From a candidate division FCPU426 bacterium (lineage in GTDB: Bacteria; Oederibacteriota; Muellerivitia; Muellerivitales; Muellerivitaceae), in contig CAVRAL010000004.1 in assembly GCA_963719085.1 (NCBI GenBank), forward strand, positions 992,001-1,056,000: a DNA stretch of 64,000 nucleotides. Reading direction: 5' to 3'. The position numbers were made by a program, and so were the translations under genes. Position 1 is the stretch's first letter. Every line of letters starts with the position of its first letter. The notes under the pieces were generated by a model, which did not search any database, was not told the origin of the DNA, and worked only from the letters and a program-made list of their open reading frames with translations. Positions 6,042 through 62,023 of the stretch are shown here, in pieces.

Positions 6042-8801
6042 TTGAAACGTTTTCTGAAAAAAATCGGAATGGTTCTGGCGCTGCTGGGCCTTCCTTGGAG
6101 CGCCTGGGCCGGCGCCAATTATGGACCGGGGAATTTTTCCTTTCCCCAAAACAAGGACAATCCTTACGGCATCCACGCCTCGGTTTATAACAACCAGGAT
6201 GTGATCGACGCCTATAACAAATGGTACGCCGATTGCGTTACCTCCACGGGCGCCGGAGGATTTCTTCGCCTGCAAAGGCCTAACGACTCCGGGCTTAATC
6301 TCAACTCCACCGTGTCGGAAGGCATTGGTTACGCCATGGTCATCGCCGTTTACATGAACGACGAAAACCTCTTCGATAACATTTGGAAATATGAGCAGCT
6401 GCATTTGGACGGCAATAAACTCATGAACTGGTACATCGACGCCAGCGGGGCGACCGATGGAACCGGCGGGGCGACGGACGCGGACGAGGATATGGCTTGG
6501 GCGCTTCTGATGGCCTCCCGCCAATGGGGCGGCAGCGGGACCCTCGGCGGCACTTACCTCAATTACGCCGTCAGCCAGATCAACAATATCTACGCCACCG
6601 AACTCAACAGCGGGATTCCGGACGGCGGAGACAGCTTCACCCCGATCAATCCCTCGTATTTCGCTCCGGCTTATTACCGTGAATTCGCCGCCGCCACGGG
6701 GCAAAGCGGCTGGTTGACGGTCGCGGCCAACTGTTACACCGTGCTCAATAATAATTTGGGGCAAGGCTACGGCAACGCCGCCAATGGCCTGGACTCCGCT
6801 TGGTGCACCAGCGCGGGCGTTTCCACCGCGACCAACGCCGCCCCCTATGACTATCAATATGATGCTTGCCGCACGCCTTTCCGCACTACGGAGGATTATC
6901 TGTGGTTTGGAACGGCCGCTTCGCAAAGCTACGCCACGCTGACCAGCAACTTTTTCTCGGGGGTAGGCGCTGTTTCCATCGTGGACGGTTATTACCTCAA
7001 CGGGACGCCGCACCCCCATTTGCCCACCCTGACGGTTTCCCAAAACCCCGGCACCCAGTCGGCGGCTTTTGTGGGTCCCGCGGGCGTGGGCGGCATGGTT
7101 TCCCACGCTTATCAGTCGTTTTTGGACAACGACTATCAGGATTTGGTGGGCTCCAAACTTTTGGTGGGGGGGACTTATTATGACGAATCCTGGACGGTCA
7201 TGTCGCTCTTGATGATGAGCGGCAATTTTCTGGACTACAATCTTTACACCACGCCCACTCCCACGCCGACCTTGACGGCTTATTCGCCGCTGACCATCCG
7301 GGTGGACGCCGGATCGGTGACCAACGTGGTCGACAGCGCGGGGGCCACTTGGTATGCCGACCAGCAGTTCGGCGGAGCCAACACCTGGGGCTATGACTCG
7401 ACCGACAAGGGAAGCACCTCGACCTACACCTCGGCCATTACCGGCGCGGCGGCGGGCCAGCAAGCGCTTTACCAAACCGAGCGCTGGGGTAATCCGCTCT
7501 ACCGGTTTACCGTGCCGAACGGCTATTACGTGGTCACGCTCAAGTTCGCCGAGAATTACGACGCCGATTCCCATGTGGGGGGGCGGGTCTTCAGCGTGGC
7601 GGCGGAAGGGACGCCCGTTATCACCAACTTGGATGTTTATAAAACGGTGGGAGAACACAAGGCTTATGACGTGCCCGTCACCGTGGTGGTCACCGATGGG
7701 GAATTGGATTTAGCTTTCAGCGCCACCGCCGATTCCTCCATCGTGGACGCTATCCAGGTATTGCGGGTGACTACGCCCCCGACCCCCACGGTGACAGCGA
7801 CCAAAACCATTACGCCCACCAATACGCCTACCATTGGCTCTCCCACCGCCACGATGACGGGAACCCCGCCCACGGCTACTCCGACCCCGACATTTACGTC
7901 GACCGCCTCACCTACGGTTTCGGCGTCGCCTACGGCCACGGCGACCCCGAGCCCGACCCTGACTTTCACCGTGACCCTCACGGCGACCATGACTAAAACC
8001 TTTACCTGGACCCCGACACTCACAGCAACTCCGTCCTCGACGAAGACGATGACCGCGACCTTGACCGCCACCAATTCTTTTACCCCCACGATCACCCGAA
8101 CCCCGACTTCTACGCCCTCGGTAACTTTGACGGCAACCGCGTCCGTAACCCCGACCATCACGATGACAAGAACTTCGACCCCAACCCCGACTTTGACACT
8201 GACGCCGACGATGTCCTTTACGTCGACCGCTTCAACGACTCCCACCCCGACGACGACGGTCTATCCCTCGGCCACCGCGACCTTGACCTTCACCCCGACC
8301 AAGACATTGTCCCCCACGCCGACCTTGACCCCTTCGCCGTCTCCCAGCGCCACGGTTTCACCGGTGCCGACCGCCAGCGCGACAAAAACCCCGACGGTCA
8401 CGCCAATGCCAAGCCCGACTTCAACTTGGACCGTTACCTTGACCGCGACTCTGGTCCCCACCGACACCCTGACGCCCACTCCGATCGCGACTTTGACTTT
8501 TACCGGCACTCCAGCCGCCCCGGTGGGAGTACCGGTGATTTATCCCAATCCCGCCAAAGGCGGTCAGGCCGTTTCGATCCAGCTTCCGGATTTTCCCGGG
8601 ACGGCCGTGATCGGGGTTAAGGTTTTCACGACGGCGTTTCGAAAAGTAAATCAGTTCAGCGCGATCAATCAAACCGGCGGAGCGAAACTATCGCTGCCTT
8701 TGAGTGACCAGGGGGGGACGCCCCTGGCGGATGGCCTTTACTATGTGATGGTGACTACGCCCAACGGACGGTCTATCGGCAAATTGTTGATTCTTCGTTG
8801 A
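6042..8801 (+). CDS. Secreted GH8 hydrolase + malectin-like CBM + Thr/Pro linker + T9SS-like CTD
   Basis: Signal peptide. GH8 motifs TVSEGIGYAM, ATDADEDMA, YDACR. Malectin 'LYQTERWG..VTLKFAE..RVFSV'. C-terminus YPNP..FTTAFRKV..LADGLYYV..GKLLILR. Confidence 0.9.
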   Translation: MKRFLKKIGMVLALLGLPWSAWAGANYGPGNFSFPQNKDNPYGIHASVYNNQDVIDAYNKWYADCVTSTGAGGFLRLQRPNDSGLNLNSTVSEGIGYAMVIAVYMNDENLFDNIWKYEQLHLDGNKLMNWYIDASGATDGTGGATDADEDMAWALLMASRQWGGSGTLGGTYLNYAVSQINNIYATELNSGIPDGGDSFTPINPSYFAPAYYREFAAATGQSGWLTVAANCYTVLNNNLGQGYGNAANGLDSAWCTSAGVSTATNAAPYDYQYDACRTPFRTTEDYLWFGTAASQSYATLTSNFFSGVGAVSIVDGYYLNGTPHPHLPTLTVSQNPGTQSAAFVGPAGVGGMVSHAYQSFLDNDYQDLVGSKLLVGGTYYDESWTVMSLLMMSGNFLDYNLYTTPTPTPTLTAYSPLTIRVDAGSVTNVVDSAGATWYADQQFGGANTWGYDSTDKGSTSTYTSAITGAAAGQQALYQTERWGNPLYRFTVPNGYYVVTLKFAENYDADSHVGGRVFSVAAEGTPVITNLDVYKTVGEHKAYDVPVTVVVTDGELDLAFSATADSSIVDAIQVLRVTTPPTPTVTATKTITPTNTPTIGSPTATMTGTPPTATPTPTFTSTASPTVSASPTATATPSPTLTFTVTLTATMTKTFTWTPTLTATPSSTKTMTATLTATNSFTPTITRTPTSTPSVTLTATASVTPTITMTRTSTPTPTLTLTPTMSFTSTASTTPTPTTTVYPSATATLTFTPTKTLSPTPTLTPSPSPSATVSPVPTASATKTPTVTPMPSPTSTWTVTLTATLVPTDTLTPTPIATLTFTGTPAAPVGVPVIYPNPAKGGQAVSIQLPDFPGTAVIGVKVFTTAFRKVNQFSAINQTGGAKLSLPLSDQGGTPLADGLYYVMVTTPNGRSIGKLLILR

Positions 8802-8975
8802 GAAGATAAACTTTATTAATTCTTTAATGGCAGTCAAAAATATCGATTTAACCGCTTCTTTTACCGATGAGAGCTGGATTGGGCTTTGCTTACCAGTGCC
8901 TGTATTTTTCAAGAGTTTTAAATTTAGGGTAAACTCTGCACTTGTCCTATTTGAGAAAAAACGTTTGCGAGACTT

Positions 8976-8992
8976 AAATCGTTTGAAGACGA
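8976..8992 (+). promoter_or_regulatory. Candidate LacI-family operator AAATCGTTTGAAGACGA
   Basis: Identical 17-mer at 36182-36198 and 15-mer at 58489-58503, each at a CAZyme start. Core AAnCGnTT has the central CG of LacI operators. Confidence 0.5.
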
Positions 8993-8997
8993 CCGGA

Positions 8998-11900
8998 ATG
9001 AATTTAACAAAAAAAAGACACTTCCTATATGTTGCCCTAATTCTGACCGCTTTAAGCGGTTCGAGGGCCTTTGCCCAAACCTACACTTGGAAAAATGTGA
9101 CGGTTCCAGCTGGAGGTTTCGTTTCCGGCATCGAATTCAGTCCGGCTCAAAGCGGGCTGGTCTACGCGCGTACCGATATTGGCGGGGTTTATCGCTGGGA
9201 CAATACGAACAGCGTTTGGATTCCTTTAACCGATATGTTTAGTAATGCCCAGTACAACAATTATGGCGGCGAAAGCTTGGCCCCTGATCCAACCAACGCG
9301 AATATCGTTTATGTGGCCGCAGGGATGTATATATTCAACGGTAATGGCGTAATCCTGCGTTCCACGGACCAAGGTAATACCTGGACCAGCAATGCTATTG
9401 CGGTGCCTATGGGCGGAAATTACGACGGTCGCAATGCGGGTGAGCGCTTGGTCGTGGATCCTAATCTTGACACCACCCTCTATTTCGCCAGTCGAAGCAA
9501 CGGACTGTGGAAAAGCACGAACTCCGCTACGAGTTGGAACCAAGTTACCGCGTTTCCGGTGACTGGAGACGCCACCTACGGATTGAGTTACGTGACGATC
9601 CTTCCCGGCGGGAATCCGGGATCGGGGGCCGAGACGATCTTTGTTGGTGTGGAAGCCATGGCTTCCGGAAACAGCAACCTCTATCGGTCTACCAACGCAG
9701 GCGCCAGCTGGACCCTGGTTCCGGGTGGGCCCACCAATATGATCACCCCACACGCGGACTTGGGCATAGACGGCAATTTGTGGATGGTCTATGACAGTGG
9801 TGGTTACGGTCCCAACGGAATTACTACAGGACAGATTTGGAAATTAAACACCAGTACTTTGGCTTGGACTCATGTTGCTTTGCCGAACCCGGCTGCGGGT
9901 AGCGGCGGTTATGGCGGCATCAGTGTGGATGCCCAAAACGCACAGCATGTGGTGGTCACCACACTGGATTGGTGGGGCGGTCCGGACCATATCTACGCGA
10001 CCACCAATGGCGGGACTAGTTGGTCCATCATTGGAAATGTCCAAAATAGTTGGGATGGTTATGCCGCTCCCTTCGCCTTTTACGACAACAACGGCGCGAT
10101 CTGGACCCGCTTTTGCTCCACCTATGACGGGGGTGTGGGCTGGCAGGGAGACATCCGCATCGATCCCTTCAACTCCGGCCACGCCATCTACACGACCGGC
10201 GGCGGGGTTTGGGACAGCTCCAACATTACGGCCGTAACCCAGCCCGCCGGCGTGACTTGGACCTTCAAAGATTATGGCCTGGAAGAAACCGCCGTCACTG
10301 ACATGATGCCTTCGGCGGCGGGTGGAGTTTTCTTCAGCGCTTTTGGGGATATCTCCGGTATGCGGCATACCAACCTGACCCAGTCGCCGGCCGGGGGGAT
10401 GTATTGTAATCCGTCTTTCACAAACACCACGGGCATTGATTACGCCGAGTCCGGCCCCGCGACCATGGTGCGGGTGGGAAACTCGGGCACGGCTTCCACT
10501 GACGGGGCCTACTCCATCAATAACGGCGCCAGCTGGACTCCTTTTGCCGCCATGCCGGTGGGCTATGGCACCGCCAACGAAATGCAGTCCGTGGCCATTT
10601 CCGCCAACGGAGCCAATATCGTTGCCGTTCCCGTGAACGGGTATGGCACGCCCAGTTATTCCACCAACTTGGGAGCCAGCTGGGCGGCCTGCGCGGGATT
10701 GCCGAATGGTTCCCAGATTGCTTCGGATCGGGTGAACTCCAATATCTTTTACGCCACCTCCGGAACGACTCTTTATGTTAGTACCAACGGCGGCGCAAGC
10801 TTCGCCTCCGCGGGTACCTTTGCCGGCGGTGGGCGCCCTCGGGCGGTTTTCGGCATTGCCGGTGAAGTTTGGGTTCCGGCGGGCAACAGCGGGCTGTACC
10901 AGTTTACGAATGTGGGTTTGGGGGTGGTGACTACTACGAAAATTGCCAATGTTTCCAGCGCGGCGGCGGTGGGTTTTGGGAAGGCCGCCAGCGGCTTCAC
11001 CCATCCGGCGGTTTATGTGGTGGGGACGGTGAGCGGAACCTATGGATTCTTCCGTTGTGATGACGGCGTGGGCACAACTTGGACAAGGATCAATGACAAT
11101 AACCACCAGTACGGCGCGGTTGGGTTCGCCTCAGGTGATGAGACGGTCTACGGCCGGATGTATGTAGGCACTAACGGACGAGGGATTCTTTATGGTGACA
11201 CCAGTGTTACAACCCCCACGCCGACCCCGACCGCCACACGGACGGCTACTGCTACACCAACGCCCACTTTAACCGTCACCAAAACCCAAACCCCGACCGC
11301 GTCACCGACTCTAACCCCCACTCTGACGATGACAAAAACCTTTACATTGACCGCTACGCCTTCTTTAACTCCGACTTCGTCTCCCACCTCGACTCGGACG
11401 GTGACCCCTACTGTATCCCCGACGGCTAGCTTGACGGCAACCACGACCCGCACTCCGACGATGACCGCGATGCCGACGATGACGTTGACGCCGTCGCAGA
11501 CCACAACGCCGGTAGCGAGCGTTACCAATACCTATACGCCGACCGTGACAGCGACTCCCTCCGTGACCTCAACTAGGACCGCCTCGCCTACGGCTACGGC
11601 GTCGCCTACGGCCACACTTTCCGCGACCTCGACGGCGACTCGAACCCAGAGCGCGACGCCTTCCACGACCAAAACGCCGACGGTGACGACGACGCCGACG
11701 GTGACCTTGACGCCCCAATTTACCTTTACGGTGACTTTGTCTTTCACGCCCACCCCATCGACCACCTGGACCCTGTCGCCCACGGCGACCGCGACCCCTA
11801 CGGCCACCTCCACCAAGACCGCGACTTCCACCGCGACCGCCACCTTTACCCCGACCCGCACCATGACGCCGCCTTTTACCGCCACTCCGACGCCTACCAG

Positions 11901-12633
11901 CACCTCGACGGCGACCGCTCTACCCACCTCGACCTTGACGCCCTTGCCCACGGTGAGCCTGCAGTTGAATACGTCGTCTTCCTCGGCGGATGCGGGGCAA
12001 AGCTATAGCTATACCTGGGAGATTACGGTGACAGGAAGTTCGCCGCAGAACGGGACGCTGACCCAAAGCCTGCCGGCGGGAGTGACGGTGACGGGATTCT
12101 CCGGGTCTTCGGGGGTGGTGAATGGAAACCAAATCACGTGGAACCTGAACAACCTGCCGGTGGGAGTGACTCAATTGCAGGTGAATGTGGAGATTGACGG
12201 TTCGGTGGCGGGAGGGACGGAGCTTTCAAGCCAAGGGACGCTGAGCTATACGGGAGGCTCGGCCTCGTCCAACAGCGCCTCGGTGAGCGTGGTGGCTTTG
12301 ACCTCAACGCCCACCTCGACGCCGACCTTGACGTTTACGCCGACGCCGGAGCCTATAGGGGGAGTGCCGGTGTTGTACCCGAACCCGGTGAGCGGCCCGG
12401 GCCCGGTGAACATCCAATTGCCGACCTATCCGGGGACGAGCAAGGTGACGGTGCAAGTGTTCACGACGGCGTTTAGGATGGTGAACGAATTCTCGGTGAC
12501 CCAGGCGGGGGGAAGCGTGGTGTCCCTGCCCTTGACGGACCGGAACAACCGGCCCTTGGCGAACGGGCTTTATTACGTGCTGGTCAACTCGCCGGCGGGT
12601 AAATCGATTCTCAAACTGCTGATCCTGCGCTGA
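8998..12633 (+). CDS. Secreted GH74 xyloglucanase + Thr/Pro linker + DUF11-like Ig domain + CTD
   Basis: [52 protein letters not shown] and BNR repeats. Start placed at ATG 8998 (or in-frame TTG 8983) ahead of the signal peptide. Confidence 0.92.
11430..12614 (+). repeat. Shared 3' tail, copy 1 (GH74)
   Basis: 1185 bp matching 14534-15718 with about 5 mismatches by eye. The part from 11649 also matches the two GH30 tails. Confidence 0.95.
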
Positions 12634-12880: not shown

Positions 12881-12897
12881 GTTTTAAGCCTGTTTGT

Positions 12898-13076: not shown

Positions 13077-15737
13077 ATGTCGTTTTTTGCCCATAACCAA
13101 AAATCGTTTTTTGCCGCCAAACCGTTGCTGAGCGGGCTCCTTTTTTTGGCCATGATGGTTTTTGGCTTTTCAACCGCTTTCGCGCTTCCGCCCCAATTAA
13201 AAGTTCAAGGCAATGAATTGGTCACCGCCAGCGGCGGTTGTACGGTTCGCTTGACCGGCGTCAATGTGGATTCCACCGAATGGGACGCCGCGGGTGAGTA
13301 TCCGTCCGGGGGGAGCTTCATGACCCAGGTACAGGAAGCCGTCCAATATTGGAATGTCAATTTGATCCGTGTGGCCATCGACCAGGATTGGTGGGACGGA
13401 TTCGCCCAAAGCTCCCGGGGCGCCACCAGTCAGGCGAATTATCAAGCCATGATTGATTCGGTCGTCGCCTACTGTAATACCAACAATATCTATTGTGACT
13501 TGGACCTGCATTGGTCCGGGGACGGAACCACGGGATCGGCCATCCAGCAATATTCCATGCCCGATGACAACAGCGTGACCTTTTGGACCAGTATGGCCGC
13601 GCGTTACGCCAACAACCCTTCCGTTTTATTCGATCTTTTCAATGAGCCTTTCACCAATTCCTGGACCGTCTGGCTCAATGGGGGGACGACCAGCGAGGGG
13701 TTCCATACGCCGGGGTTTCAGTCTTTGCTGAATACGATACGCAATACTTCCAGCGGCGGGGGCGCCTATGCCAGCGGCACAAAGGCGGAAAATGTCTGCA
13801 TCGTCGGCGGTCAACAGTATTCTTATTACTACGTGGGCATGAGTCCGGTGGTGGATGTGGCGGGCGGCAACGGGGTGGTCTATTCGGCGCATATCTATAA
13901 CAACAAAGGCACCAACAATGCCACCGGCTGGCAGACCAACATTGATCCGGCGCTCACTTATGGTCCGGTACTCGTTGAGGAATTCGGGAACTCGAACGCC
14001 GAAACCGACAATGGAGCCTTCGTGAATACTTTGTTGCCTTGGATTAACGGCACAAACGACAAGAATTATGTTTACAGCGCCATGGCCTGGGATCTGGATC
14101 TTTCGGCGGGCCCGTCTTTGATTACCACATGGTCCTCAACCCTTTCGGCGCCGGTTTCCACGGGAACCACCGGTTGGGTATTAACCAACTTTGAAGGGCA
14201 ACAGATTTACGCTTGGTTGAAGGGGATAACTTATCCGACTTGTTCCTCGGGGCCCACCGCCACGCCGACCGTGGCCTTTACTAAAACTTTTACATCCACC
14301 ATGACCTTGACCCCAACCCAAACTCCGACGGCCACGGCTACCCGGACGCCGACTTTAACGCCCACTGCCACCCGGACCGCGACGGTCACCCCAACAGCGA
14401 CCGCCACGATTGTTTTGACGGCTACCCCAACGAAGACCGCTTCTCCCACAACCACTGCGACGCCAACCCAAACCGCCACGAAGACAGCGACTTTGACGCC
14501 AACGTTTACGATGACCCCAACACCGACCCACACCTTGACGGCAACCACGACCCGCACTCCGACGATGACCGCGACGCCGACGATGACGTTGACGCCGTCG
14601 CAGACCACAACGCCGGTAGCGAGCGTTACCAATACCTATACGCCGACCGTGACAGCGACTCCCTCCGTGACCTCAACTAGGACCGCCTCGCCTACGGCTA
14701 CGGCGTCGCCTACGGCCACACTTTCCGCGACCTCGACGGCGACTCGAACCCAGAGCGCGACGCCTTCCACGACCAAAACGCCGACGGTGACGACGACGCC
14801 GACGGTGACCTTGACGCCCCAATTTACCTTTACGGTGACTTTGTCTTTCACGCCCACCCCATCGACCACCTGGACCCTGTCGCCCACGGCGACCGCGACC
14901 CCTACGGCCACCTCCACCAAGACGGCGACTTCCACCGCGACCGCCACCTTTACCCCGACCCGCACCATGACGCCGCCTTTTACCGCCACTCCGACGCCTA
15001 CCAGCACCTCGACGGCGACCGCTCTACCCACCTCGACCTTGACGCCCTTGCCCACGGTGAGCCTGCAGTTGAATACGTCGTCTTCCTCGGCGGACGCGGG
15101 GCAAAGCTATAGCTATACCTGGGAGATTACGGTGACAGGAAGTTCGCCGCAGAACGGGACGCTGACCCAAAGCCTGCCGGCGGGAGTGACGGTGACGGGA
15201 TTCTCCGGGTCTTCGGGGGTGGTGAATGGAAACCAAATCACGTGGAACCTGAACAACCTGCCGGTGGGAGTGACTCAATTGCAGGTGAATGTGGAGATTG
15301 ACGGTTCGGTGGCGGGAGGGACGGAGCTTTCAAGCCAAGGGACGCTGAGCTATACGGGAGGCTCGGCCTCGTCCAACAGCGCCTCGGTGAGTGTGGTGGC
15401 TTTGACCTCAACGCCCACCTCGACGCCGACCTTGACGTTTACGCCGACGCCGGAGCCTATAGGGGGAGTGCCGGTGTTGTACCCGAACCCGGTGAGCGGC
15501 CCGGGCCCGGTGAACATCCAATTGCCGACCTATCCGGGGACGAGCAAGGTGACGGTGCAAGTGTTCACGACGGCGTTTAGGATGGTGAACGAATTCTCGG
15601 TGACCCAAGCGGGGGGAAGCGTGGTGTCCCTGCCCTTGACGGACCGGAACAACCGGCCCTTGGCGAACGGGCTTTATTACGTGCTGGTCAACTCGCCGGC
15701 GGGTAAATCGATTCTCAAGCTTTTAATACTTAGGTAA
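13077..15737 (+). CDS. Secreted GH5 glycoside hydrolase + Thr/Pro linker + DUF11-like domain + CTD
   Basis: Signal peptide and clan-A motifs NLIRV, LDLHW, FDLFNEP (acid/base), YSAHIY, VEEFG (nucleophile). Confidence 0.92.
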   Translation: MSFFAHNQKSFFAAKPLLSGLLFLAMMVFGFSTAFALPPQLKVQGNELVTASGGCTVRLTGVNVDSTEWDAAGEYPSGGSFMTQVQEAVQYWNVNLIRVAIDQDWWDGFAQSSRGATSQANYQAMIDSVVAYCNTNNIYCDLDLHWSGDGTTGSAIQQYSMPDDNSVTFWTSMAARYANNPSVLFDLFNEPFTNSWTVWLNGGTTSEGFHTPGFQSLLNTIRNTSSGGGAYASGTKAENVCIVGGQQYSYYYVGMSPVVDVAGGNGVVYSAHIYNNKGTNNATGWQTNIDPALTYGPVLVEEFGNSNAETDNGAFVNTLLPWINGTNDKNYVYSAMAWDLDLSAGPSLITTWSSTLSAPVSTGTTGWVLTNFEGQQIYAWLKGITYPTCSSGPTATPTVAFTKTFTSTMTLTPTQTPTATATRTPTLTPTATRTATVTPTATATIVLTATPTKTASPTTTATPTQTATKTATLTPTFTMTPTPTHTLTATTTRTPTMTATPTMTLTPSQTTTPVASVTNTYTPTVTATPSVTSTRTASPTATASPTATLSATSTATRTQSATPSTTKTPTVTTTPTVTLTPQFTFTVTLSFTPTPSTTWTLSPTATATPTATSTKTATSTATATFTPTRTMTPPFTATPTPTSTSTATALPTSTLTPLPTVSLQLNTSSSSADAGQSYSYTWEITVTGSSPQNGTLTQSLPAGVTVTGFSGSSGVVNGNQITWNLNNLPVGVTQLQVNVEIDGSVAGGTELSSQGTLSYTGGSASSNSASVSVVALTSTPTSTPTLTFTPTPEPIGGVPVLYPNPVSGPGPVNIQLPTYPGTSKVTVQVFTTAFRMVNEFSVTQAGGSVVSLPLTDRNNRPLANGLYYVLVNSPAGKSILKLLILR
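14534..15718 (+). repeat. Shared 3' tail, copy 2 (GH5)
   Basis: Near-identical to 11430-12614. Diverges only in the last ~19 nt, which still encode KLLILR*. Confidence 0.95.
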
Positions 15738-15794: not shown

Positions 15795-15797
15795 GGG

Positions 15798-24949: not shown

Positions 24950-25014
24950 AAATGAAATTTGGCCGGGCTTAAACGGAAGCGCGGGTTTGAAAACCGGCAA
25001 GAGGAGGCTCGAAA

Positions 25015-44712: not shown

Positions 44713-44784
44713 GGCCGCAATCCGAGTTTTATTTTTTTGAAGTTGCTGAGGGGGACCCTTGAAGGGGTCAGGAAGTTAAATCGG

Positions 44785-48389: not shown

Positions 48390-48446
48390 AACTTGTCCCG
48401 CGTGCAACCGGCTTTCCTGAGTGATATGATTTTCAGGGAGGCTTGC

Positions 48447-54291: not shown

Positions 54292-57171
54292 GTGAAGATT
54301 CTCCCGTTAAATTTATTCTCCCCGCGAGTGGGGGGTGTCATTCTTTTTTGGGCGATGACGCCCCTGGCCGCTTGGGCCTGGGTCAATCCCAGTTTTGAAA
54401 CGGGAAGCTTGACCGGCTGGACCACCAATACGGCCAGCGGAGGCGGGCTTGCCTGTGGAAACCCCACGGCTTCCATTGTGAATGTGGGGGGCGGCTCCGC
54501 GCCAGATTCAGTGGGCCCTTTAACTCCCGCGGGGCTTCCTTTGGTGGGGGCCGGCAACGGCAACTACGCGGTCCAGGTTTTTTCGTCCCGGGGAGATCCC
54601 AACTTTGGCGATTGGGCCCAGGTTTGGCAAACCGATACCGTGCCCTCCGGCGGAACCTCCTGCTGTCTTTCCTTTTATATTGCCGCCATTCTGGAAGACT
54701 ATCATTACACCCAGGAACAAGACACTTTCGGGGACGCTTATATAGAAGCTGATGTGGTTGTCGGCGGCGGCACGGCGGGCGCCGGCGGCGTGACGGTGGC
54801 CAGTCTGCGTTATGGCTGGGGTTACGACGTAGGTACCGGCCTTTTGCAGGCCACCGGACAAAATGGTCCAGGGACCTATTCAACTTGTACCGTTTCCCAA
54901 ACGCCTTCCCCGAATTGGGGGTTCATTCCCTGGACTCAGCAAACAGTCAATCTTTGCGCTTACGCCGGCCAAAAGGTCACCTTGTTGGTGACGGCGTTTG
55001 ACTGCGACGGGGACGGCCATTACAGCTTGGGTTATTTGGACAACGTAAGTTGGAACACTTGCGTGCCGCCCCAGTTTAATTTGGTGAAATCCGTCAGTCC
55101 TTCGGGAGACGCCAATCCGGGGGATACCTTGACCTATACCCTCGCCTACTCCAACCCGAGCGCGGTGCCCATCGACGGGGTTCAAATCTGCGACACGATT
55201 CCGACCGACGTGAAGCTTTTGACCGACACGATCGCGGCCAATCCGCCCGAGGGAGCGGTGACCTGGACAGGCACCGGCGCGGGCGACATCTTGTGTTGGG
55301 ATTTGGGATATATCGGCCCCCATGTCAATGGCACGCTTTCTTTCGCGGTGAGCGTCCAAAAACCCTGCAACACCATTATCAATCAAGCGGAGGAGACGGA
55401 CGCCGAGACCGCCGGCCTTCAGTCCAACGCCGTTACCAATGACGTGGCCAGTTGCACGCCTACCAAGACCCCTAAAACGACGCCCACCTTTACCCCTACC
55501 CTGAGCCCCACGCTTTCGCCGACCTTAACGAAAACTTTTACTTGGACCCCCACCCGAACCTTTACCCCCACTTTCACCCCGACCAATACCCCAACGCCCA
55601 GTCCTACGACGACAGTTACCCTGACTCCGACCAAGACTCCGACGCCGACGAATAGTTGGACGGCGACACCCACTAAGACCCCAACGCCGACCCTCAGTCC
55701 GACCCCGTCTCCGACGGTCACCTTGACTGACACACCGAGTCCGACCGCGACTTTGTCTTCCACCTGGACCCCGACCCGAACGCCGACGAATACTCCGACC
55801 GTTTCGGCGTCGGCTACGCCTTCCGCCACTTCGACGGCAACCCATACGCCAACCGTCACCCCGACGGTGACCCCTACCATGACCGGAACGCCGCCTATTA
55901 CTCCTACGGCAACGCCATCCCCGACACTGACTTGGACGCCTACTCCCACGTTTACATTGACCGCGACCCCAACGCCTTCGCCTACGGCGACCCCGACCGC
56001 TAGTGCGACGCCAACCCCGTCGCCGACTTGGACACCCACCGACACTCCGACCATCACGCCGGTGTTCACGCTGACGCCCATGCCGACCCCGACCGTGACA
56101 CTGACGGCCTCGCCCACCCCTACCTTTTCGCCGACCTTAACCTGGACTCCCACCTTCACAGCCACTTTTTCCCCGACGAGGACATGGACCATGACGCCAA
56201 CTCAGACACCGACCTGTACTTTTACGCCCACCCCCACAGTGACGCTTTCGCCGACCGCCACGCTTACCCCCGCGCCCTCGGGAAGTTTCACTGTGACGGT
56301 CGGGATCTATAACGAGGCCGGGGAACTGATAAAGCAAGTCCAGGTGGGGAACGCTTTTTCGGCGGTTCAGGTTTTGCTTCTGTCCACCCAAGTGATCGAC
56401 AGCCTCAGCCAGCCTCTCACGATTAATTATGGAGGCGGATCCGCCGCCAGTTGGGACGGGACCGGGCAAAATGGCGACCCGGTTTCCAATGGACAATATT
56501 ATGTCAAGGTCGACAGCGCGGACCCGAGCGGCAATGTCACCAGCGTGACCCAGCCGATCTTGGTCAACCGGTCCCTGGCCCAGTTCACCTTGAACATTTA
56601 CAACGAGTCCGGCGAAGTCGTGCGGCATATCCTGGCCATTGTCCAAGACGCGGGGGAGAGTGTGGCCCATTCGCTGTCGCTGTCTTCCAATGTGTTGAGC
56701 CCGGCTTCCGGCGGGAACTCGGCGGCGGTGACTATCCTGGCCGATGGCCAAGTAATCGCCACTTGGAACGGCTCGTCCGATAACGGCACTTTGGTTTCCA
56801 GCGGCACTTACTTTATTTCAGCGCATGAACTGGACGGAAAAGGGAACGAGGCCAATATTACAAATACGATCGTCGTGTTAGGTTCCGGGTCTTTGCCCAA
56901 TATTCAGGCGCGGGCGGTTCCCAACTTGATTCGGGGAGCCGGCGGCACCGTCTTTGAGGCGGCGTCGACCCAAGCCCTTACCTTAAAAGCAACGCTTTAT
57001 GATTTGGCGGGGGAAAAGGTGGCTTTTCGGCAAGGGCCGCCGGGCGCGGACCAGGTGGGCTGGGACGCTTCCCAAGCGTCCAGCGGAATTTATTTGGCGG
57101 TGGTGGAAATTTGGACGGCGGACGGCCAATTGGCCCGCCGCCAAACGCTTCGGATCGCGGTGGTGCATTAG
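54292..57171 (+). CDS. Secreted protein: unknown Cys-rich N-domain + DUF11 + Thr/Pro linker + two FlgD-Ig-like domains + CTD
   Basis: GTG start after GGAGG. DUF11 'LVKSVS..PGDTLTYTL.YSN..DTIP', two copies of 'IYNE.GE..W.G..NG..VS.G.Y', final 'LYDLAGEKV..WD..SSGIYL'. Confidence 0.75.
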   Translation: MKILPLNLFSPRVGGVILFWAMTPLAAWAWVNPSFETGSLTGWTTNTASGGGLACGNPTASIVNVGGGSAPDSVGPLTPAGLPLVGAGNGNYAVQVFSSRGDPNFGDWAQVWQTDTVPSGGTSCCLSFYIAAILEDYHYTQEQDTFGDAYIEADVVVGGGTAGAGGVTVASLRYGWGYDVGTGLLQATGQNGPGTYSTCTVSQTPSPNWGFIPWTQQTVNLCAYAGQKVTLLVTAFDCDGDGHYSLGYLDNVSWNTCVPPQFNLVKSVSPSGDANPGDTLTYTLAYSNPSAVPIDGVQICDTIPTDVKLLTDTIAANPPEGAVTWTGTGAGDILCWDLGYIGPHVNGTLSFAVSVQKPCNTIINQAEETDAETAGLQSNAVTNDVASCTPTKTPKTTPTFTPTLSPTLSPTLTKTFTWTPTRTFTPTFTPTNTPTPSPTTTVTLTPTKTPTPTNSWTATPTKTPTPTLSPTPSPTVTLTDTPSPTATLSSTWTPTRTPTNTPTVSASATPSATSTATHTPTVTPTVTPTMTGTPPITPTATPSPTLTWTPTPTFTLTATPTPSPTATPTASATPTPSPTWTPTDTPTITPVFTLTPMPTPTVTLTASPTPTFSPTLTWTPTFTATFSPTRTWTMTPTQTPTCTFTPTPTVTLSPTATLTPAPSGSFTVTVGIYNEAGELIKQVQVGNAFSAVQVLLLSTQVIDSLSQPLTINYGGGSAASWDGTGQNGDPVSNGQYYVKVDSADPSGNVTSVTQPILVNRSLAQFTLNIYNESGEVVRHILAIVQDAGESVAHSLSLSSNVLSPASGGNSAAVTILADGQVIATWNGSSDNGTLVSSGTYFISAHELDGKGNEANITNTIVVLGSGSLPNIQARAVPNLIRGAGGTVFEAASTQALTLKATLYDLAGEKVAFRQGPPGADQVGWDASQASSGIYLAVVEIWTADGQLARRQTLRIAVVH

Positions 57172-57257
57172 CCGTTTTTTATGACGGTAGAAGCCGCGGC
57201 GTCTTAAAAGACCCGCTTGTGGGCCTTTCGTTGAAGCGGTATAGTAAGAACCTGCCC

Positions 57258-58286
57258 ATGAAAAACGTAACTATCCAAGATATTGCCGAGCGCGCCGGGG
57301 TGACCAAAGCCACGGTTTCCATGGTGATCAACCAGGACCATCGGATCACGGAAAAAACCCGCGACAAGGTCTTGAAGATCATCAAGGAGATGAACTATTA
57401 CCCCAATCAGTCCGCGCGGAAACTCGCCCGGGGGAAAAGCGACGTTATCGCTTTCGTGTCGGCCCGTTTTGCCGCGCCTTTTATCGCCTCGGTCATGGAC
57501 GCCTTTGAGCAGCGGGCTTTTCAAATGGGGCGGTATGTCCACGGCATCCATCCTTATTCCACCCAGCATAAAACCGAGGCCAAGGAAGAGCTGCTCCAGC
57601 AAATCCTTTATGGCCGCACCGCCGACGCGGTCGTGGTGGTGACGATCCGCCCCAGTCAAAAAGTCGTCGACGAATACGCCGCCCGGAAAATCCCGTTGAT
57701 CCTTTTAGAAAACACTTTGCCGGGAAGCCACAGCATCCGGGTGGACAATGTGAAAGGCGGCTTAATCGCCACCGAGTACCTGATTCAAAAGGGGCGTAAA
57801 AGAATTGGATTGATTAACGGCGAAACCCAGCCGCCACCGGGCGTGGATGTGGTTCCCTCGGCGGTGGAGCGGTTGGAAGGCTACCGGCAGGCTTTGAAAA
57901 ACAAAGGTCTTGATTACACCGAAAACCGCGTGGTCGCTTACGGCAATTATTTATTTGAGGAAGGGCGGATGGGATTGAAGACCCTTCTGGAAAAAGACCC
58001 CAAACTGGACGCCATCTTTTGCGCGGCGGGGGACATTATGGCCATGGGCGTCATGGCGGAAGCCCAGGCCCGCGGCATCCGAATTCCGGAAGACCTCGCG
58101 CTGGTGGGCTATGACGACATGCCGGCTTCCAGCCTTTTAAAGCCGGCCCTGACCACCGTTCATCAACCGCTCGCCCAGATGGGAGTACAGGCTTTTGAGA
58201 CCGCCATTGACGCCATTGACGGTAAATTACCCCAAGACCGCAATATCCTGATGCAACCCGAACTCATTGTTCGGGAGTCAGCCTAG
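57258..58286 (+). CDS. LacI-family transcriptional regulator
   Basis: MKNVTIQDIAERAGVTKATVSMVIN HTH, and IPEDLALVGYDD..PALTTVHQP. Start reassigned to ATG 57258. Confidence 0.95.
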   Translation: MKNVTIQDIAERAGVTKATVSMVINQDHRITEKTRDKVLKIIKEMNYYPNQSARKLARGKSDVIAFVSARFAAPFIASVMDAFEQRAFQMGRYVHGIHPYSTQHKTEAKEELLQQILYGRTADAVVVVTIRPSQKVVDEYAARKIPLILLENTLPGSHSIRVDNVKGGLIATEYLIQKGRKRIGLINGETQPPPGVDVVPSAVERLEGYRQALKNKGLDYTENRVVAYGNYLFEEGRMGLKTLLEKDPKLDAIFCAAGDIMAMGVMAEAQARGIRIPEDLALVGYDDMPASSLLKPALTTVHQPLAQMGVQAFETAIDAIDGKLPQDRNILMQPELIVRESA

Positions 58287-58488
58287 GCCGGTTTTTTTTC
58301 CATAAAAAAGTCGATTTTTTTAAAAAAGGGTTAAACAGCCTTATTTTCAAAGAAATTGGGGCCAAATATTAGAGGCCCGCACTGGCAGAAATAAAAGGCT
58401 GGGGTATACTTAGAAAGTTCGTTATTTACAAGACGCGACCCGAACGGTTAGTCTGTTGCGCTCGCAATCAAAATTTTTGACTTGGATA

Positions 58489-58503
58489 AAATCGTTTGAA
58501 GAC
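58489..58503 (+). promoter_or_regulatory. Candidate LacI-family operator overlapping the GH8 start
   Basis: AAATCGTTTGAAGAC, as at 8976 and 36182; lies directly downstream of the lacI-family gene. Confidence 0.5.
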
Positions 58504-61500
58504 TTTTAAATCCAACCTATTTCGGCTCCCGGCCTCTTTCGCTCTCGCCTGCCTTCTATTCCATTTCGCCGGCGTAGCCACGGTTCAAGCCCAGAGCATT
58601 AACTCGGGGGCTGGAACCTTTACTTTCCCTCACAACGCGACTTACCCCCATGGTTTCATGGCCACCGGATTGCCCAGCACAGCCGCGAGCAACGGTGTTT
58701 CTACCACTTATCTCAATTGGTATTCCCATGCCGTCATCAATTCGGGTGTGACCCGTAGCGGCTTTCCCACCTGTACTTCCTGCTTAAGGGTTTTTCGCAA
58801 TACCAACAGTAATGATACCGTATCCGAAGGCATCGGCTATGGCATGTTGATCGCCGTGATGATGGATGATAAAACTTTGTTTGATGGCCTCTATAAGTAC
58901 GCCTACCAATGGATGCCGGATTCCAGCAACAACATGGTGATGGACTGGAATCTCAATTCAGGCGGCGGAATTATCGGCGCCAATGGCGCCACGGACGCCG
59001 ATGAGGACATGGCCATGGCCTTTTTGATCGCCAGCAAGATATGGCCGAGCGCGGCCGCGGTTGCCCTGACCAACAGCCAGCAGACGGCCGTGAGCAAAAC
59101 CTACCAACAAACCTACGAGGACATGGTCACCGCTATTTGGACCCAGGAAACCAAGGGGGGCGCGGGAGTCTATTCAGGGGACGCTTTCCAATATCCCTTC
59201 TACTCCAGCTATATGACGCCGGCTTGGTACAATTGCTGGAATTCCAGCGATACCTTCGGCCGTAGTTGGTCATCCTTAACGACCTGGGTCTACAGCACTT
59301 ATTTCAAGACGCTTTTCACCACCGACAACAAAGGCTTCATGCCGGATACGGCCACCGGACCGACCATCGGCAACAATGTGTCGACCATGAGTTTTGACGC
59401 TTCCCGTTATCCTTTGCGCATCGGCATCGACTATCTTTGGAACGGCTCCGCGGGCGCGGTCAGCTACGCGGGAACTTTCGCCACCAACGTGATGAACGCG
59501 GTGAACTCCAGCGGATTCGCCACGCAGGTCGGGGACAACTGGTCAGTGCCCGGCGGGACTCCCGGCGGTTCTTTCTGCGACTCGCTCCAAATCGGGCCCC
59601 TCGCGGTAGCCGCCATGATGACCAACCAAGCCAACGCCACCTCCGCCTATAACGAATTGACCGCCCGTTACGGTTCGCCCGGTTGTAACGGCGGGTCTGA
59701 AAACTTCCAGTATTTCCAAGACACGCTTTGCATGTTGAGCGAGTTGGTTTGTACCGGAAATTTCCCCAACATCGTTTGCGGCACTCCGCCCTGCGGAAGC
59801 CAGACTTGCACGCCCACGCCTTCGCCCACGCCCTTGGCCTGTTACATGGTTTCGGATGACGTTGACGGCACCGAAGAAAATCATACCAACGGTTATTGGT
59901 TCTCCTATAGCTATGCCAGCGTCAGCAATACGCCGGTCAAAACCCCCGTACTGGTGGGAGTTTCCAACACCAATTACATCTTGCAGGCCAATGGACCTAA
60001 CGGCATGCCTTACGCCGACAGTGTGACGGGCTACTGCGCCATCAATGGGGGAACGACGGTCGCTTCTTACGGCTCCGTGACCAATTCGCCCTCGGTGGTT
60101 TACGCCGGCTACGCGCTCGGAACCGAACTTTTGGCCGGTTACCAGAATCTCAATTCGATGACTAACATTAGTTTCTGGGTGGAAGCGACCAAAGCCCCTG
60201 TGACTCTTCAGATTTCTTTTTACAACGCCAATATTGACGTTCCAGCTGGTGGAAACGCCAACCAGTACAAGAACACGGCGCCGATCATCATCTCGACCGC
60301 CAATACTTGGCAGTATGTCTCCATTCCCTCGGGCATCGCCAATATCGCGCCCAGCTCTTACGCGCCGGCGCTGGGCGCGGGTCCGACGACTTATACCTAT
60401 GCCATGGCCATGAGCCAAGTGACGTCCCTGCAGTGGCAGGAAGTAGCGCCTTCCACCGGCGTGACTTACGGATTCTCCGTGGGCCAGGTTTGCATCGCCG
60501 GCACCAGCTGGGTCACGCCGACGCCTTTAGCCACCGCTACTCCTGTTGTCACCATTTTGCCGACCAATACGCCGACCTTATCTCCGACCGTGACCCAAAC
60601 GGCCACGAAGACCATCACGCCGACCTCGACCCCGACCCAAACGCCGACCGCCACCGCGACTCGAACCGCGACCACCACGATGACGCAAACGCCGACCGCT
60701 ACCCCCACCCTGACGCCCACATTGGCTTTCAGCCCGACTTTTACGGGTACGCCCACGGCTACCCGTACCTTGACGATGACCGCGACCGTTACCTCGACCA
60801 ATACGGCGACTGTAACCCCAAGCGCCACCTTCACTCGGACTGTGAGCCCGACCCCGACCCAAACCTCAAGCCCCACCATTACGATGACGCCGCCCGCGAC
60901 CTCCACGCCCACCCTAACGGGAACGATGACTTGGACGCCGACCGTGACGTCGACGCCTACGATCACCTTGACTCCGACGGTTTCCAATACGCCTACCATT
61001 ACGCAGACCCCGACGATCACCAATACGCCCTTGCCGACAAGCACGCCCACTCAAACGCCGACCATCACGGCGACGCCGCTTTTCTCGAGCACGCCGACGT
61101 TTAGCTTCACCCCGACGCCCACCACCACCTTCACGGCGACTTTGACGGGCACTTGGACCGCGACGCGGACCTGGACGCCCTTATTTACCAGCACGATCAC
61201 GCCCACCGGCACCAACACGCCGGTCTTTACCAGCACCACTACGTCGACGCCGACCTCCACCCCGACGCCGACCTTTACCCTGACTTTGGTTCCCACGGGG
61301 ACCTTCACGCCGACCTGGACGCCGACTCCCATTCCGGGCGTTAGCTTTGGGGCGCCTCAATTCACGGGGACCTCGCAAGCGGGCGATCCCTTCGTATATT
61401 CGATTCCTATCACCATTTCGGGCAGCACGGCTACGAACGTCAGCTTCGCGGATAATCTGCCTTCGGGCCTCAACTTCACCAGTTTCGGCACCATTCCGGC

Positions 61501-62023
61501 CGGTGGAACGCCGAGCGGCTCGACCATTACTTGGCCCACCCTGCCGGCGGGAATTTATAATATCGTCGTGAACGGAACTATTAGTAATACGGCCACGGGA
61601 ACCTTGACCAATAGCGCCACGCTGAGCTTTACGGGCGGCGGACCTTTGACTTCGTCACCGGCCAATGTTGTCGTTGTTGTCTTAACCGCGACCCCGACCG
61701 GGACCCCCAGCCCAACGGCGACCGCGGTCATCTTGGTGCCGGTTACCACGCCGGTTCCTTATCCCAACCCCTCAACCACCACCGGGCCCATTACGGTAGC
61801 CGTGTCCTTTGGCCAGCCGACGGGACCCGTGCATCTTGAAATCTTCACGACCGCGTTCCGAAAGATCCGGGATATAAACGAGGGTCCTGTGCCCGCGGGG
61901 ACGCAAAACTGGACCTTATACCTGGTGGATAACGACGGCATTTCCCTGGCCAATGGCCTTTATTACGTGGTGATCAGCACCCCCAACGGACGCTCGATCG
62001 GGAAAATATTGGTCCTGCGCTAA
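58496..62023 (+). CDS. Secreted GH8 + CBM11/CIA30-like module + Thr/Pro linker + DUF11-like domain + CTD
   Basis: TVSEGIGYGML, ATDADEDMA, FDASRYP; C-terminus [28 protein letters not shown]. Confidence 0.88.
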   Translation: MKTFKSNLFRLPASFALACLLFHFAGVATVQAQSINSGAGTFTFPHNATYPHGFMATGLPSTAASNGVSTTYLNWYSHAVINSGVTRSGFPTCTSCLRVFRNTNSNDTVSEGIGYGMLIAVMMDDKTLFDGLYKYAYQWMPDSSNNMVMDWNLNSGGGIIGANGATDADEDMAMAFLIASKIWPSAAAVALTNSQQTAVSKTYQQTYEDMVTAIWTQETKGGAGVYSGDAFQYPFYSSYMTPAWYNCWNSSDTFGRSWSSLTTWVYSTYFKTLFTTDNKGFMPDTATGPTIGNNVSTMSFDASRYPLRIGIDYLWNGSAGAVSYAGTFATNVMNAVNSSGFATQVGDNWSVPGGTPGGSFCDSLQIGPLAVAAMMTNQANATSAYNELTARYGSPGCNGGSENFQYFQDTLCMLSELVCTGNFPNIVCGTPPCGSQTCTPTPSPTPLACYMVSDDVDGTEENHTNGYWFSYSYASVSNTPVKTPVLVGVSNTNYILQANGPNGMPYADSVTGYCAINGGTTVASYGSVTNSPSVVYAGYALGTELLAGYQNLNSMTNISFWVEATKAPVTLQISFYNANIDVPAGGNANQYKNTAPIIISTANTWQYVSIPSGIANIAPSSYAPALGAGPTTYTYAMAMSQVTSLQWQEVAPSTGVTYGFSVGQVCIAGTSWVTPTPLATATPVVTILPTNTPTLSPTVTQTATKTITPTSTPTQTPTATATRTATTTMTQTPTATPTLTPTLAFSPTFTGTPTATRTLTMTATVTSTNTATVTPSATFTRTVSPTPTQTSSPTITMTPPATSTPTLTGTMTWTPTVTSTPTITLTPTVSNTPTITQTPTITNTPLPTSTPTQTPTITATPLFSSTPTFSFTPTPTTTFTATLTGTWTATRTWTPLFTSTITPTGTNTPVFTSTTTSTPTSTPTPTFTLTLVPTGTFTPTWTPTPIPGVSFGAPQFTGTSQAGDPFVYSIPITISGSTATNVSFADNLPSGLNFTSFGTIPAGGTPSGSTITWPTLPAGIYNIVVNGTISNTATGTLTNSATLSFTGGGPLTSSPANVVVVVLTATPTGTPSPTATAVILVPVTTPVPYPNPSTTTGPITVAVSFGQPTGPVHLEIFTTAFRKIRDINEGPVPAGTQNWTLYLVDNDGISLANGLYYVVISTPNGRSIGKILVLR

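Follow-up and report, generated by a model that had tools for sequence, protein, structure and literature searches.

The secretion system of type IX (T9SS) acts on multidomain proteins that are exported by Sec and end in a C-terminal domain (CTD). In its type-A form, modelled by TIGR04183 and PF18962 and solved in RgpB, PorU, PorZ, mirolase and NucA, this domain comprises about 90 residues at the extreme C-terminus, folded as a seven-strand immunoglobulin (Ig)-like sandwich with a lysine in the last strand. PorV, a 14-strand FadL-like barrel, carries substrates, and PorQ and PorV hold PorZ and PorU; the work behind PDB entries 8GL6 and 8GLK reportedly found substrates bound to PorV within the translocon. 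The system has been described as confined to Bacteroidota, perhaps with other phyla of the Fibrobacteres-Chlorobi-Bacteroidetes (FCB) group, and as 'absent from other bacterial phyla' (PMC11285876). Here we describe a 64,000-nucleotide stretch of DNA, referred to as the window, in which positions 6042 to 62023 encode secreted polysaccharide-degrading enzymes ending in domains that resemble these CTDs, together with two PorV-like barrels. The reading that we favour, at somewhat better than even, is that this region is a polysaccharide-degradation secretome island of a diderm, probably flagellated bacterium outside Bacteroidota, in which CTD-dependent export involves the PorV-like barrels.

Multimodular cellulases linked to the T9SS are known in Bacteroidota from Cytophaga hutchinsonii. 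Candidatus Paraporphyromonas polyenzymogenes offers a further example, with clustered GH5 and other CTD-bearing carbohydrate-active enzymes and neither a polysaccharide utilisation locus (PUL) nor a cellulosome (PMC5831590). That organism belongs to Bacteroidota and has an identified T9SS, whereas the window appears to come from a different phylum and the T9SS core was not found in the sequence scanned. In Porphyromonas gingivalis the PorA-PorXY-SigP pathway ties a CTD protein, a histidine kinase and response regulator pair and a sigma factor of the extracytoplasmic function (ECF) type to CTD traffic, the PorA CTD acting as a periplasmic ligand that binds the kinase PorY and activates PorXY-SigP (PMC12152298). 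The putative counterparts in the window are instead encoded with PorV-like barrels that carry tetratricopeptide repeats (TPR), and the anti-sigma factor itself bears a CTD-like domain. Type-B CTD proteins are encoded beside a PorP/SprF-like barrel of their own, which they bind and which is thought to anchor them (PMC9143113); this pairing is seen in the window too, although its barrels are of the PorV/PorQ family and its CTDs are type-A-like.

Sorting-domain look-alikes outside the FCB phyla were noted in 2014, when orphan TIGR04183 domains were reported from the candidate phylum Poribacteria with no Por structural genes found (PMC3909097). To this the window adds PorV-family barrels genetically linked to CTD proteins and a coherent set of carbohydrate-active cargo. 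Goldbacteria (FCPU426), a rare uncultured lineage with Firestonebacteria and Elusimicrobia as sister groups, are likewise rich in GH5, GH8, CBM3, CBM9 and CBM11 and have flagellar genes, which is a resemblance only; the route of enzyme secretion is not discussed in the text of that paper that was searched (PMC7031533). A literature search on Goldbacteria, Firestonebacteria or Elusimicrobia with T9SS, covering articles but not supplementary files, found nothing relevant, and for the first two lineages type IX secretion occurred only in a reference title.

Fifteen proteins encoded within the island carry an N-terminal hydrophobic, signal-like segment, as called by our own hydrophobicity heuristic, and end in an Ig-like CTD of about 90 residues. 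An earlier note on this DNA, made from the sequence alone, had given the same number, and its description of the domains proved accurate: ten share the motif FT[TP]AFR[KM] and the remaining five fall into four variants. A six-frame translation contains the exact motif ten times, with every copy on the plus strand and 57-59 residues ahead of a stop (10/10); we estimate that its recurrence by chance would be expected far less than once. The other variants comprise a pair, on the PL4+CBM3 and GH39-like+CBM3 proteins, and three single members, on the PA14+CBM9 protein, the PL1+malectin protein and the multi-Ig protein at 54292. The PNP and G.Y blocks and the basic/hydrophobic end that the note had listed are all present in the CTDs, with G and Y as the only invariant columns over all 13 distinct CTDs of the window. 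A sixteenth CTD-like domain forms the periplasmic part of the anti-sigma factor (47736-48389).

Scanning a genome collection with the motif gave 49 related loci (742 kb) in 14 metagenome-assembled genomes (MAGs), all uncultured, and these loci together with the window supplied an alignment of 78 distinct FTTAFRK-type tails. Within it R40 is invariant (78/78), and P8, N9, P10, F35, T36, A38, F39, G71, Y73, Y74 and K87 are each conserved in at least 90%. The domain is closely tied to the end of the protein. In the window and loci 85 of 97 matches to a hidden Markov model of the CTD end exactly at the C-terminus, and among the best 150 of 1.84 billion database representatives all 140 single-stretch matches end no more than 3 residues from it, by our reading of the table. 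In all, 446 database proteins match the CTD profile, and their cargo includes GH43, GH30, GH9, GH8, GH44, GH74, PL4, GH53, GH5, GH18 and CE4.

An AlphaFold2 model of the CTD has seven strands and a mean pLDDT of 95.1. The motif lies at the end of β3 (residues 27-35), in the following loop (36-40) and at the start of β4 (41-51), such that F35 closes β3, T36 to R40 form the loop and K41 opens β4. This placement at L-β3-β4 agrees with the note's proposal that FTTAFRK corresponds to the usual 'IYD..GR' strand. In P. gingivalis the motifs in L-β3-β4 and in the C-terminal, lysine-bearing strand are both needed for secretion, and L-β3-β4 differs in Tannerella, whose CTD is non-functional in Porphyromonas (PMC11285876). 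The last-strand lysine is kept in the window's lineage, as K87 in GKLLILR (at least 90% of the 78 tails), yet the loop reads FTTAFR[KM], in place of the usual D..G-R type, and there is no glycine at the start of β4. The FTTAFRK loop is very strongly conserved, and the simplest reading is that it is a lineage-specific recognition determinant.

Comparison with solved structures placed the CTDs near the type-A sorting domain, as the note had supposed. Against the PDB, the best match of the CTD profile was the PorU CTD (1.9e-5), followed by the CTD of NucA from the structure of a T9SS complex (8.5e-4), FlgD (1.3e-3) and PorZ (3.2e-3), and a Foldseek search with the model returned PorU (6za2), the mirolase CTD (8qb1) and PorZ (5m11) at TM scores of about 0.7, then the NucA CTD (8glk_D). 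As in type-A cargo, the predicted domain is a seven-strand Ig-like sandwich and is the last domain of a protein with a Sec signal (15/15, the signal being called by the heuristic), with N-terminal PNP and G.YY blocks and a lysine in the last strand. On the profile matches, the fold matches and the C-terminal position, we class the CTD within the T9SS type-A CTD/FlgD_ig fold group, as a divergent member.

The island also encodes two barrels with C-terminal TPR, of 446 residues (50330-51670) and 616 residues (19347-21197), and both appear to be genuinely PorV-like, as the note had proposed. The 446-residue protein passes the PorV/PorQ family model NF033709 with 118.7 bits against a cut-off of 90, and falls under the equivalog cut-offs of NF033710 PorV (43.8 vs 250) and NF033711 PorQ (80.3 vs 220). 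With a profile built from 8 family sequences, the sole non-TPR chain matched in the PDB was PorV of Flavobacterium johnsoniae (1.6e-15). Its AlphaFold2 model has 14 strands and then five TPR helices, and the top Foldseek matches were 8gl6_F (1e-13) and 6h3i_F (7.5e-11), both of them PorV chains, from two entries for the T9SS translocon, with FadL and TodX at about 1e-7. The 616-residue protein scored 44 bits with NF033709, below the cut-off, and is homologous to the 446-residue family over residues 50-302 (hhalign probability 98%, E 1.3e-13). The 446-residue barrel shares with F. johnsoniae PorV (6H3I chain F) the predicted 14-strand FadL-like barrel and the family model, and is encoded beside a CTD protein; both window barrels add a C-terminal TPR that is absent from solved PorV and lie in operons with sigma/anti-sigma or histidine kinase/response regulator genes. 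The TPR should face the periplasm, because a barrel with an even number of strands (14) has both its ends there. The note's further label of 'PorP-like' did not hold, as neither barrel matched PorP/SprF (NCBIfam at E of 0.1 or less, Pfam at E of 0.01 or less). At NCBI the name 'PorV/PorQ family protein' is already in use for proteins of Elusimicrobiota.

Each barrel gene belongs to a cassette with a signalling pair and a CTD protein. On the minus strand the order is the 616-residue barrel-TPR, histidine kinase, response regulator and PA14+CBM9+CTD protein, with overlapping start and stop codons; no counterpart of this cassette was present among the 49 loci. The plus-strand order is the ECF sigma factor, the anti-sigma factor with its periplasmic CTD-like domain, the PL1+malectin+CTD protein and the 446-residue barrel-TPR, and the CTD in this cassette is the only one of the 15 that passes TIGR04183 (48393-50327, 28.0 bits against a cut-off of 23). 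We place the start of the anti-sigma gene at the ATG at 47736, which overlaps the sigma stop codon, since the N-termini of the orthologues are conserved and a Shine-Dalgarno-like site is present; the longest open reading frame (ORF), from 47394, would overlap the sigma gene by 346 nt. Full-length orthologues of the 446-residue barrel were found in 7 of the 49 CTD-selected loci, from 6 MAGs. An anti-sigma-like gene ending in an Ig domain lies upstream of the barrel in six of the seven, and an ECF sigma factor was confirmed in three (L019, L020 and L041). In five of the seven the barrel adjoins a protein that matches the window PL1 protein over the last ~89 residues only (72%, 48% and 26-28% identity) and carries a different passenger. 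As these neighbours share only that terminal segment, what is conserved beside the barrel is a CTD subtype and not an enzyme, as would be expected if the barrel's partner were the CTD itself. In L041 and L037 a gene for FlgE stands directly upstream of the sigma/anti-sigma/CTD/barrel cassette.

Matches to Pfam and NCBIfam among the 29 ORFs of the window show that 6042-62023 is a nearly unbroken run of secreted carbohydrate-active proteins. The glycoside hydrolases (GH) are GH8 twice (once with malectin), a Sortilin/BNR protein of GH74-like type, GH5, GH30 twice (once with the carbohydrate-binding module CBM11) and GH28. The polysaccharide lyases (PL) and carbohydrate esterase (CE) are PL4 twice (once with CBM3), a PelZ-like beta-helix, PL1 with malectin, and CE4. 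Other cargo consists of a weakly GH39-like protein with CBM3, a PA14+CBM9 protein lacking a catalytic domain, and a multi-Ig protein. Interspersed with these are two AraC-type regulators, one LacI-type regulator, one histidine kinase/response regulator pair, one ECF sigma/anti-sigma pair and the two barrel-TPR genes. The genes are as follows.

6042..8801, plus strand: GH8 and malectin, 269-residue Pro/Thr linker, FTTAFRK CTD with the motif at 8625 (Pfam GH8 1.2e-45, Malectin 6e-24; TIGR04183 21.9 bits, under the cut-off of 23).
8827..12633, plus strand: Sortilin/Vps10 (BNR, GH74-like), Pro/Thr linkers, FTTAFRM CTD (Pfam); homologues are named xyloglucan-specific exo-glucanase at source. The real start is probably near 8998, because the signal-like segment begins at about residue 58.
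13077..15737, plus strand: GH5 cellulase, Pro/Thr linkers, FTTAFRM CTD with the motif at 15564 (Pfam Cellulase 2e-25).
15798..17255, minus strand: PA14 and CBM9 with no catalytic domain, distinct FlgD_ig-like CTD (CBM9_1 4e-31, PA14 1.4e-16, FlgD_ig 2e-4); last gene of the barrel, kinase and regulator operon, overlapping the response regulator gene by 4 nt.
17252..17962, minus strand: OmpR-type response regulator (Response_reg 4.7e-32, Trans_reg_C 3e-19).
17935..19350, minus strand: sensor histidine kinase, HAMP-HisKA-HATPase (Pfam).
19347..21197, minus strand: second PorV-family barrel with C-terminal TPR, 616 residues (NF033709 44 bits; TPR_2 4.7e-15).
21494..24949, plus strand: PL4 rhamnogalacturonan lyase and CBM3, CTD variant ending KVVILK (Pfam and CTD alignment).
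25015..27891, plus strand: GH39-like (weak) and CBM3, KVVILK-type CTD as in 21494..24949 (CBM_3 4e-12; Glyco_hydro_39 2.5e-4, below cut-off).
27916..30753, plus strand: PelZ-like pectate lyase beta-helix, FTTAFRK CTD with the motif at 30574 (NF041900 2.5e-22, below cut-off).
30902..34105, plus strand: PL4 lyase, FTTAFRK CTD (Pfam and motif).
34173..36002, plus strand: AraC-type regulator with a PocR/GGDEF_2-like sensor part (Pfam).
36203..38965, plus strand: GH30 XynC-like xylanase, PKD-like domain, FTTAFRM CTD (NF052681 6.4e-60, below cut-off).
39167..40984, plus strand: second AraC-type regulator (Pfam).
41209..44523, plus strand: GH30 and CBM11, FTTAFRM CTD (Pfam, NCBIfam and motif).
44737..46887, plus strand: CE4 polysaccharide deacetylase, FTPAFRK CTD (Pfam and motif).
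47158..47739, plus strand: ECF sigma factor (Sigma70_r2 5e-12, r4 2.6e-6).
47736..48389, plus strand: single-pass anti-sigma-like protein, 217 residues, periplasmic FlgD_ig CTD-like domain (FlgD_ig 45.7 bits vs cut-off 27).
48393..50327, plus strand: PL1 pectate lyase and malectin, 'cassette' CTD (Pectate_lyase_4 3e-36, Malectin 1.7e-25; TIGR04183 28.0 bits vs 23).
50330..51670, plus strand: PorV/PorQ-family 14-strand barrel with predicted periplasmic TPR, 446 residues (NF033709 118.7 vs 90).
51808..54207, plus strand: GH28 polygalacturonase, FTTAFRK CTD with the motif at 54028 (Glyco_hydro_28 8e-55).
54292..57171, plus strand: 295-residue Pro/Thr linker, several FlgD_ig-like Ig domains, fourth CTD variant (FlgD_ig 1.1e-11; TIGR04183 22.9 bits vs 23).
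57111..58286, plus strand: LacI-family regulator (Pfam); the real start is probably downstream of the annotated one.
58496..62023, plus strand: GH8, 292-residue Pro/Thr linker, FTTAFRK CTD with the motif at 61844 (Glyco_hydro_8 1.7e-24).

The cargo has a common architecture, in which a catalytic module is followed by a long Pro/Thr linker and then by the ~90-residue seven-strand Ig-like domain at the very C-terminus. Pro/Thr-rich linkers separate the catalytic modules from the CTD in 13 of the 15 proteins and range from about 50 to 295 residues, an example being residues 668-959 of the 58496-62023 product. A gene for a PMT-like glycosyltransferase adjoins GT2 genes in a related locus (L012:6950-8593), and O-glycosylation of the linkers is a possibility. 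Four enzymes share a 3' block of 990-1320 nt at 98.2-99.9% identity (11434-12633, 14538-15737, 37646-38965 and 43204-44523). It codes for the CTD and, ahead of it, a PKD-like domain between two linkers, the first of them Pro/Thr; the catalytic families differ (GH74-like, GH5, GH30 and GH30+CBM11). This looks like module shuffling, or gene conversion, that took in the whole tail and happened recently.

Among the related loci, L001 has the tail most similar to those of the window (70% identity) and shows synteny to the island's two flanks (window 5109-62984; SDR, GH8, GH74-like, GH5 ... GH8, CarboxypepD_reg lipoprotein; 57-77% identity). It spans ~17 kb against ~57 kb in the window and lacks ~40 kb including both cassettes. 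From this synteny on both sides of a much shorter locus, the window island is an expansion that includes both barrel cassettes. Immediately upstream of the island, 1853-5092 (plus strand) encodes a 1079-residue STAND-type NB-ARC ATPase with many TPR repeats. At the island edge, 345-1661 (minus strand) encodes a 438-residue multi-pass membrane protein with no relative in Pfam, NCBIfam or the PDB. Neither the Rfam scan nor the tRNA scan of the window gave a match, and genes for rRNA, tRNA and ribosomal proteins are all absent from it. SusC/D, ABC transporter, cohesin, dockerin and SLH families were likewise missing from the 29 ORFs (Pfam), and the note's statement that the block is neither a PUL nor a cellulosome stands: the window contains no TonB-dependent receptor or SusD family on the one hand, and no cohesin or dockerin module on the other (Pfam).

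The note had inferred a T9SS-related export route, and here the evidence divides. The kinship of the CTDs and of the barrels with T9SS components supports that part of the claim, but neither the window nor the related loci yielded a gene for a translocon, motor or sortase. Specifically, SprA, PorK/L/M/N or GldK/L/M/N, PorU, PorZ, PorP/SprF and PorW were absent from the 29 window ORFs and from all 286 of the 286 non-CTD proteins of at least 180 residues in the 742 kb of related loci. Of these proteins, 71 were scanned with NCBIfam at E of 1e-8 or less, the 23 matchless ones among them also with Pfam at 1e-3, and the rest with Pfam at 1e-6 (98) or 1e-5 (110), the last 7 being the barrels themselves; many of the 286 match no family. 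The loci were chosen for their CTD genes and amount, by a rough estimate, to ~1% of the MAGs, so that absence from the organisms does not follow. Genes of the type II secretion system (T2SS) were not found in the window or scanned loci either. One large protein of 2268 residues (L031:13108-19914) was considered as an SprA analogue and rejected, being a Thr/Ser-rich surface-type protein of tandem repeats with no Pfam or NCBIfam match. It has about nine repeats of ~230 residues with conserved cysteines and is encoded downstream of a FecR-type gene.

In the mechanism that we propose, the CTD would act, after Sec export, as a signal for crossing the outer membrane or for retention at it, and PorV-like carrier or anchor barrels would recognise it as in the T9SS. 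The precedents of PorV and its substrates, of type-B CTDs and PorP-like barrels, and of PorA and PorY all fit this proposal. The private FTTAFRK loop may then be the lineage-specific determinant of that recognition, and through the two cassettes gene expression may be coupled to CTD traffic or to sensing at the surface. The cargo could be moved through the membrane by a translocon of SprA type together with a motor of PorKLMN type, or by other machinery.

Several results weigh against this reading and suit another, in which the CTD is an ordinary Ig-like module of FlgD_ig type, with roles such as cell-surface retention, contacts between enzymes or contact with the polysaccharide; export would run through a T2SS, vesicles or lysis, and the barrels would be FadL-like channels or scaffolds unrelated to secretion. 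The T9SS core is missing from the window and the related loci scanned. The curated models are not satisfied, since none of the ten FTTAFRK-type CTDs passes TIGR04183 (21.9, 17.9, 17.2 and 15.9 bits, the other six giving no match), and none of the 15 CTDs passes PF18962 (best 22.6, cut-off 27). The fold, to judge from the model, is a generic Ig sandwich: FlgD matches the CTD profile as well as PorZ does, the Foldseek E values are only ~1e-4, and domains of alpha2-macroglobulin, MalQ and Nir2 are interleaved with the T9SS ones. A related Ig domain also occurs internally, as 8-14 tandem copies in large proteins that make up 10 of the best 150 representatives. The model of the 446-residue barrel is of moderate confidence (pLDDT 67.6 from 8 sequences), and barrels of the PorV-family/UPF0164 type are common in Spirochaetota, which are not known to possess a T9SS. 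Poribacteria, too, have TIGR04183 domains without Por genes (PMC3909097). An ordinary module would, however, hardly be expected to keep so strictly to the C-terminus of dozens of unrelated passengers, nor to conserve both T9SS recognition positions (R40 in 78/78, K87 in at least 90%). Its nearest solved relatives are T9SS CTDs and not carbohydrate-binding modules, a PorV-like barrel is kept beside a protein conserved only in its CTD, and T2SS genes are no more in evidence than T9SS ones. We regard the ordinary-module explanation as unlikely, if with a substantial minority chance of being right. As for the tandem-copy proteins (P0361, P0362, P0363, P0368 and others), they match profile positions ~10-80 only and lack the terminal blocks.

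A more specific form of CTD export can also be envisaged, which we offer tentatively and with a modest chance of being correct as a whole. The island would represent a reduced or re-invented CTD pathway outside the FCB phyla. Its TPR-fused PorV/PorQ-like barrels would have a double role, carrying or anchoring the CTD-tagged enzymes and also forming the outer-membrane terminus of trans-envelope signalling. A carbohydrate-binding CTD protein would be bound to each as its own 'sentinel', and the anti-sigma factor or histidine kinase would read periplasmic CTD occupancy through a CTD-like domain of its own, in the manner of the PorA CTD and PorY. Should these genomes have neither SprA nor PorKLMN, recognition of CTDs by PorV-type barrels would predate the Bacteroidota T9SS or work independently of it.

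It is also conceivable, though we think it quite unlikely, that the barrel cassettes are chiefly regulatory and take no part in transport. The signal of a surface carbohydrate-binding CTD protein on a PorV-like barrel would then reach the anti-sigma factor or histidine kinase by way of the periplasmic TPR, and export of the FTTAFRK enzymes would fall to machinery whose genes lie elsewhere. Both barrels do lie in operons with signalling pairs whose start and stop codons overlap, and the CTD proteins of the cassettes bear binding modules (PA14+CBM9 without a catalytic domain, and PL1+malectin). The anti-sigma factor, too, has a CTD-like domain as its periplasmic part, kept in 6 of 7 loci; in P. 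gingivalis the PorA CTD binds PorY, and PorA tethered to the inner membrane still signals (PMC12152298). Set against this, none of the 49 loci contains a cassette corresponding to the 616-residue one, and adjacency alone is weak evidence. The regulatory reading is in any case compatible with our favoured explanation and does not exclude it.

With regard to the host, the 14 motif-bearing MAGs are labelled 'bacterium' (9), 'proteobacterium' (4) and 'Candidatus Firestonebacteria' (1), and none carries a label of Bacteroidota or any FCB phylum (0/14). The DnaE of a related MAG belongs to a private clade whose other members, at 54-93% identity to it, are without exception labelled '[bacterium]', and beyond which the named matches (identity at most 48%) are Nitrospirae, Omnitrophica, Nitrospinota, KSB1, KSB3 and Actinomycetota; neither Bacteroidota nor Goldbacteria is named among the 120 DnaE matches listed. 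Homologues of the barrel and CTD are labelled only '[bacterium]' or '[Elusimicrobiota bacterium]', and clusters of barrel-TPR look-alikes are commonest in Elusimicrobiota and occur in Zixibacteria, Eisenbacteria and Calditrichota as well. Genes for FlgE (L023:2980-4872, L037:11806-13677, L041:6733-8619 and L045:7837-9711), LptC/LptD-type proteins, SecDF and Ffh in the related loci together point to a flagellated diderm. Shine-Dalgarno-like cores (GGAG, GAGG or AGGA at -22..-4) precede 14 of 29 gene starts against 11.6% of random positions, and the sites GAGGAGG at 25001 and AAGGAG at 1841 are where the note had placed them. Labels, DnaE, flagellar hook genes and Shine-Dalgarno enrichment all agree with the note's impression of a non-Bacteroidota genome. 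This evidence, drawn largely from relatives and their labels, supports a host outside Bacteroidota, probably in a poorly named deep lineage. It does not establish FCPU426, the phylum at which the note had guessed; the hints in that direction are the one MAG labelled Firestonebacteria and the likeness of enzyme and flagellar content to that published for Goldbacteria (PMC7031533).

The remaining alternative, that the host belongs to Bacteroidota or to another FCB phylum credited with a canonical T9SS and that the block is normal cargo of that system whose CTD has diverged locally, could draw on the T9SS-linked multimodular cellulases of Bacteroidota (PMC5831590), on KSB1 among the distant DnaE matches and on the look-alike clusters in Zixibacteria, Eisenbacteria and Calditrichota, but is very unlikely given the MAG labels, the DnaE matches, the flagellar hook genes in four related loci, the Shine-Dalgarno enrichment and the prevalence of barrel-TPR look-alikes in Elusimicrobiota.

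Clusters of T9SS-linked carbohydrate-active enzymes without a PUL or cellulosome (PMC5831590) and orphan sorting domains outside the FCB phyla (PMC3909097) are thus already known. What appears not to have been described before is the invariant alternative β3-β4 motif and its use on a whole plant-polymer secretome, and likewise the conserved cassette of sigma factor, anti-sigma factor with a CTD-like domain, barrel-TPR and CTD protein. The CTD-tagged plant-polymer enzymes of the island are numerous and form a coherent set, they are linked to PorV-family barrels, and their lineage resembles no known T9SS phylum; this suggests that CTD export operates, in whole or in part, beyond the phyla from which it has been described. 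Because standard annotation overlooks 14 of the 15 tags, surveys based on TIGR04183 will under-count such cargo. The different but invariant β3-β4 motif provides a natural experiment on the CTD recognition loop, and the conserved cassette a model of CTD-traffic sensing that is open to direct test. A pathway of this kind, if real, would widen the known range of the T9SS and bear on its evolutionary history, and would explain how poorly known polymer degraders of soil and sediment export very large enzymes.

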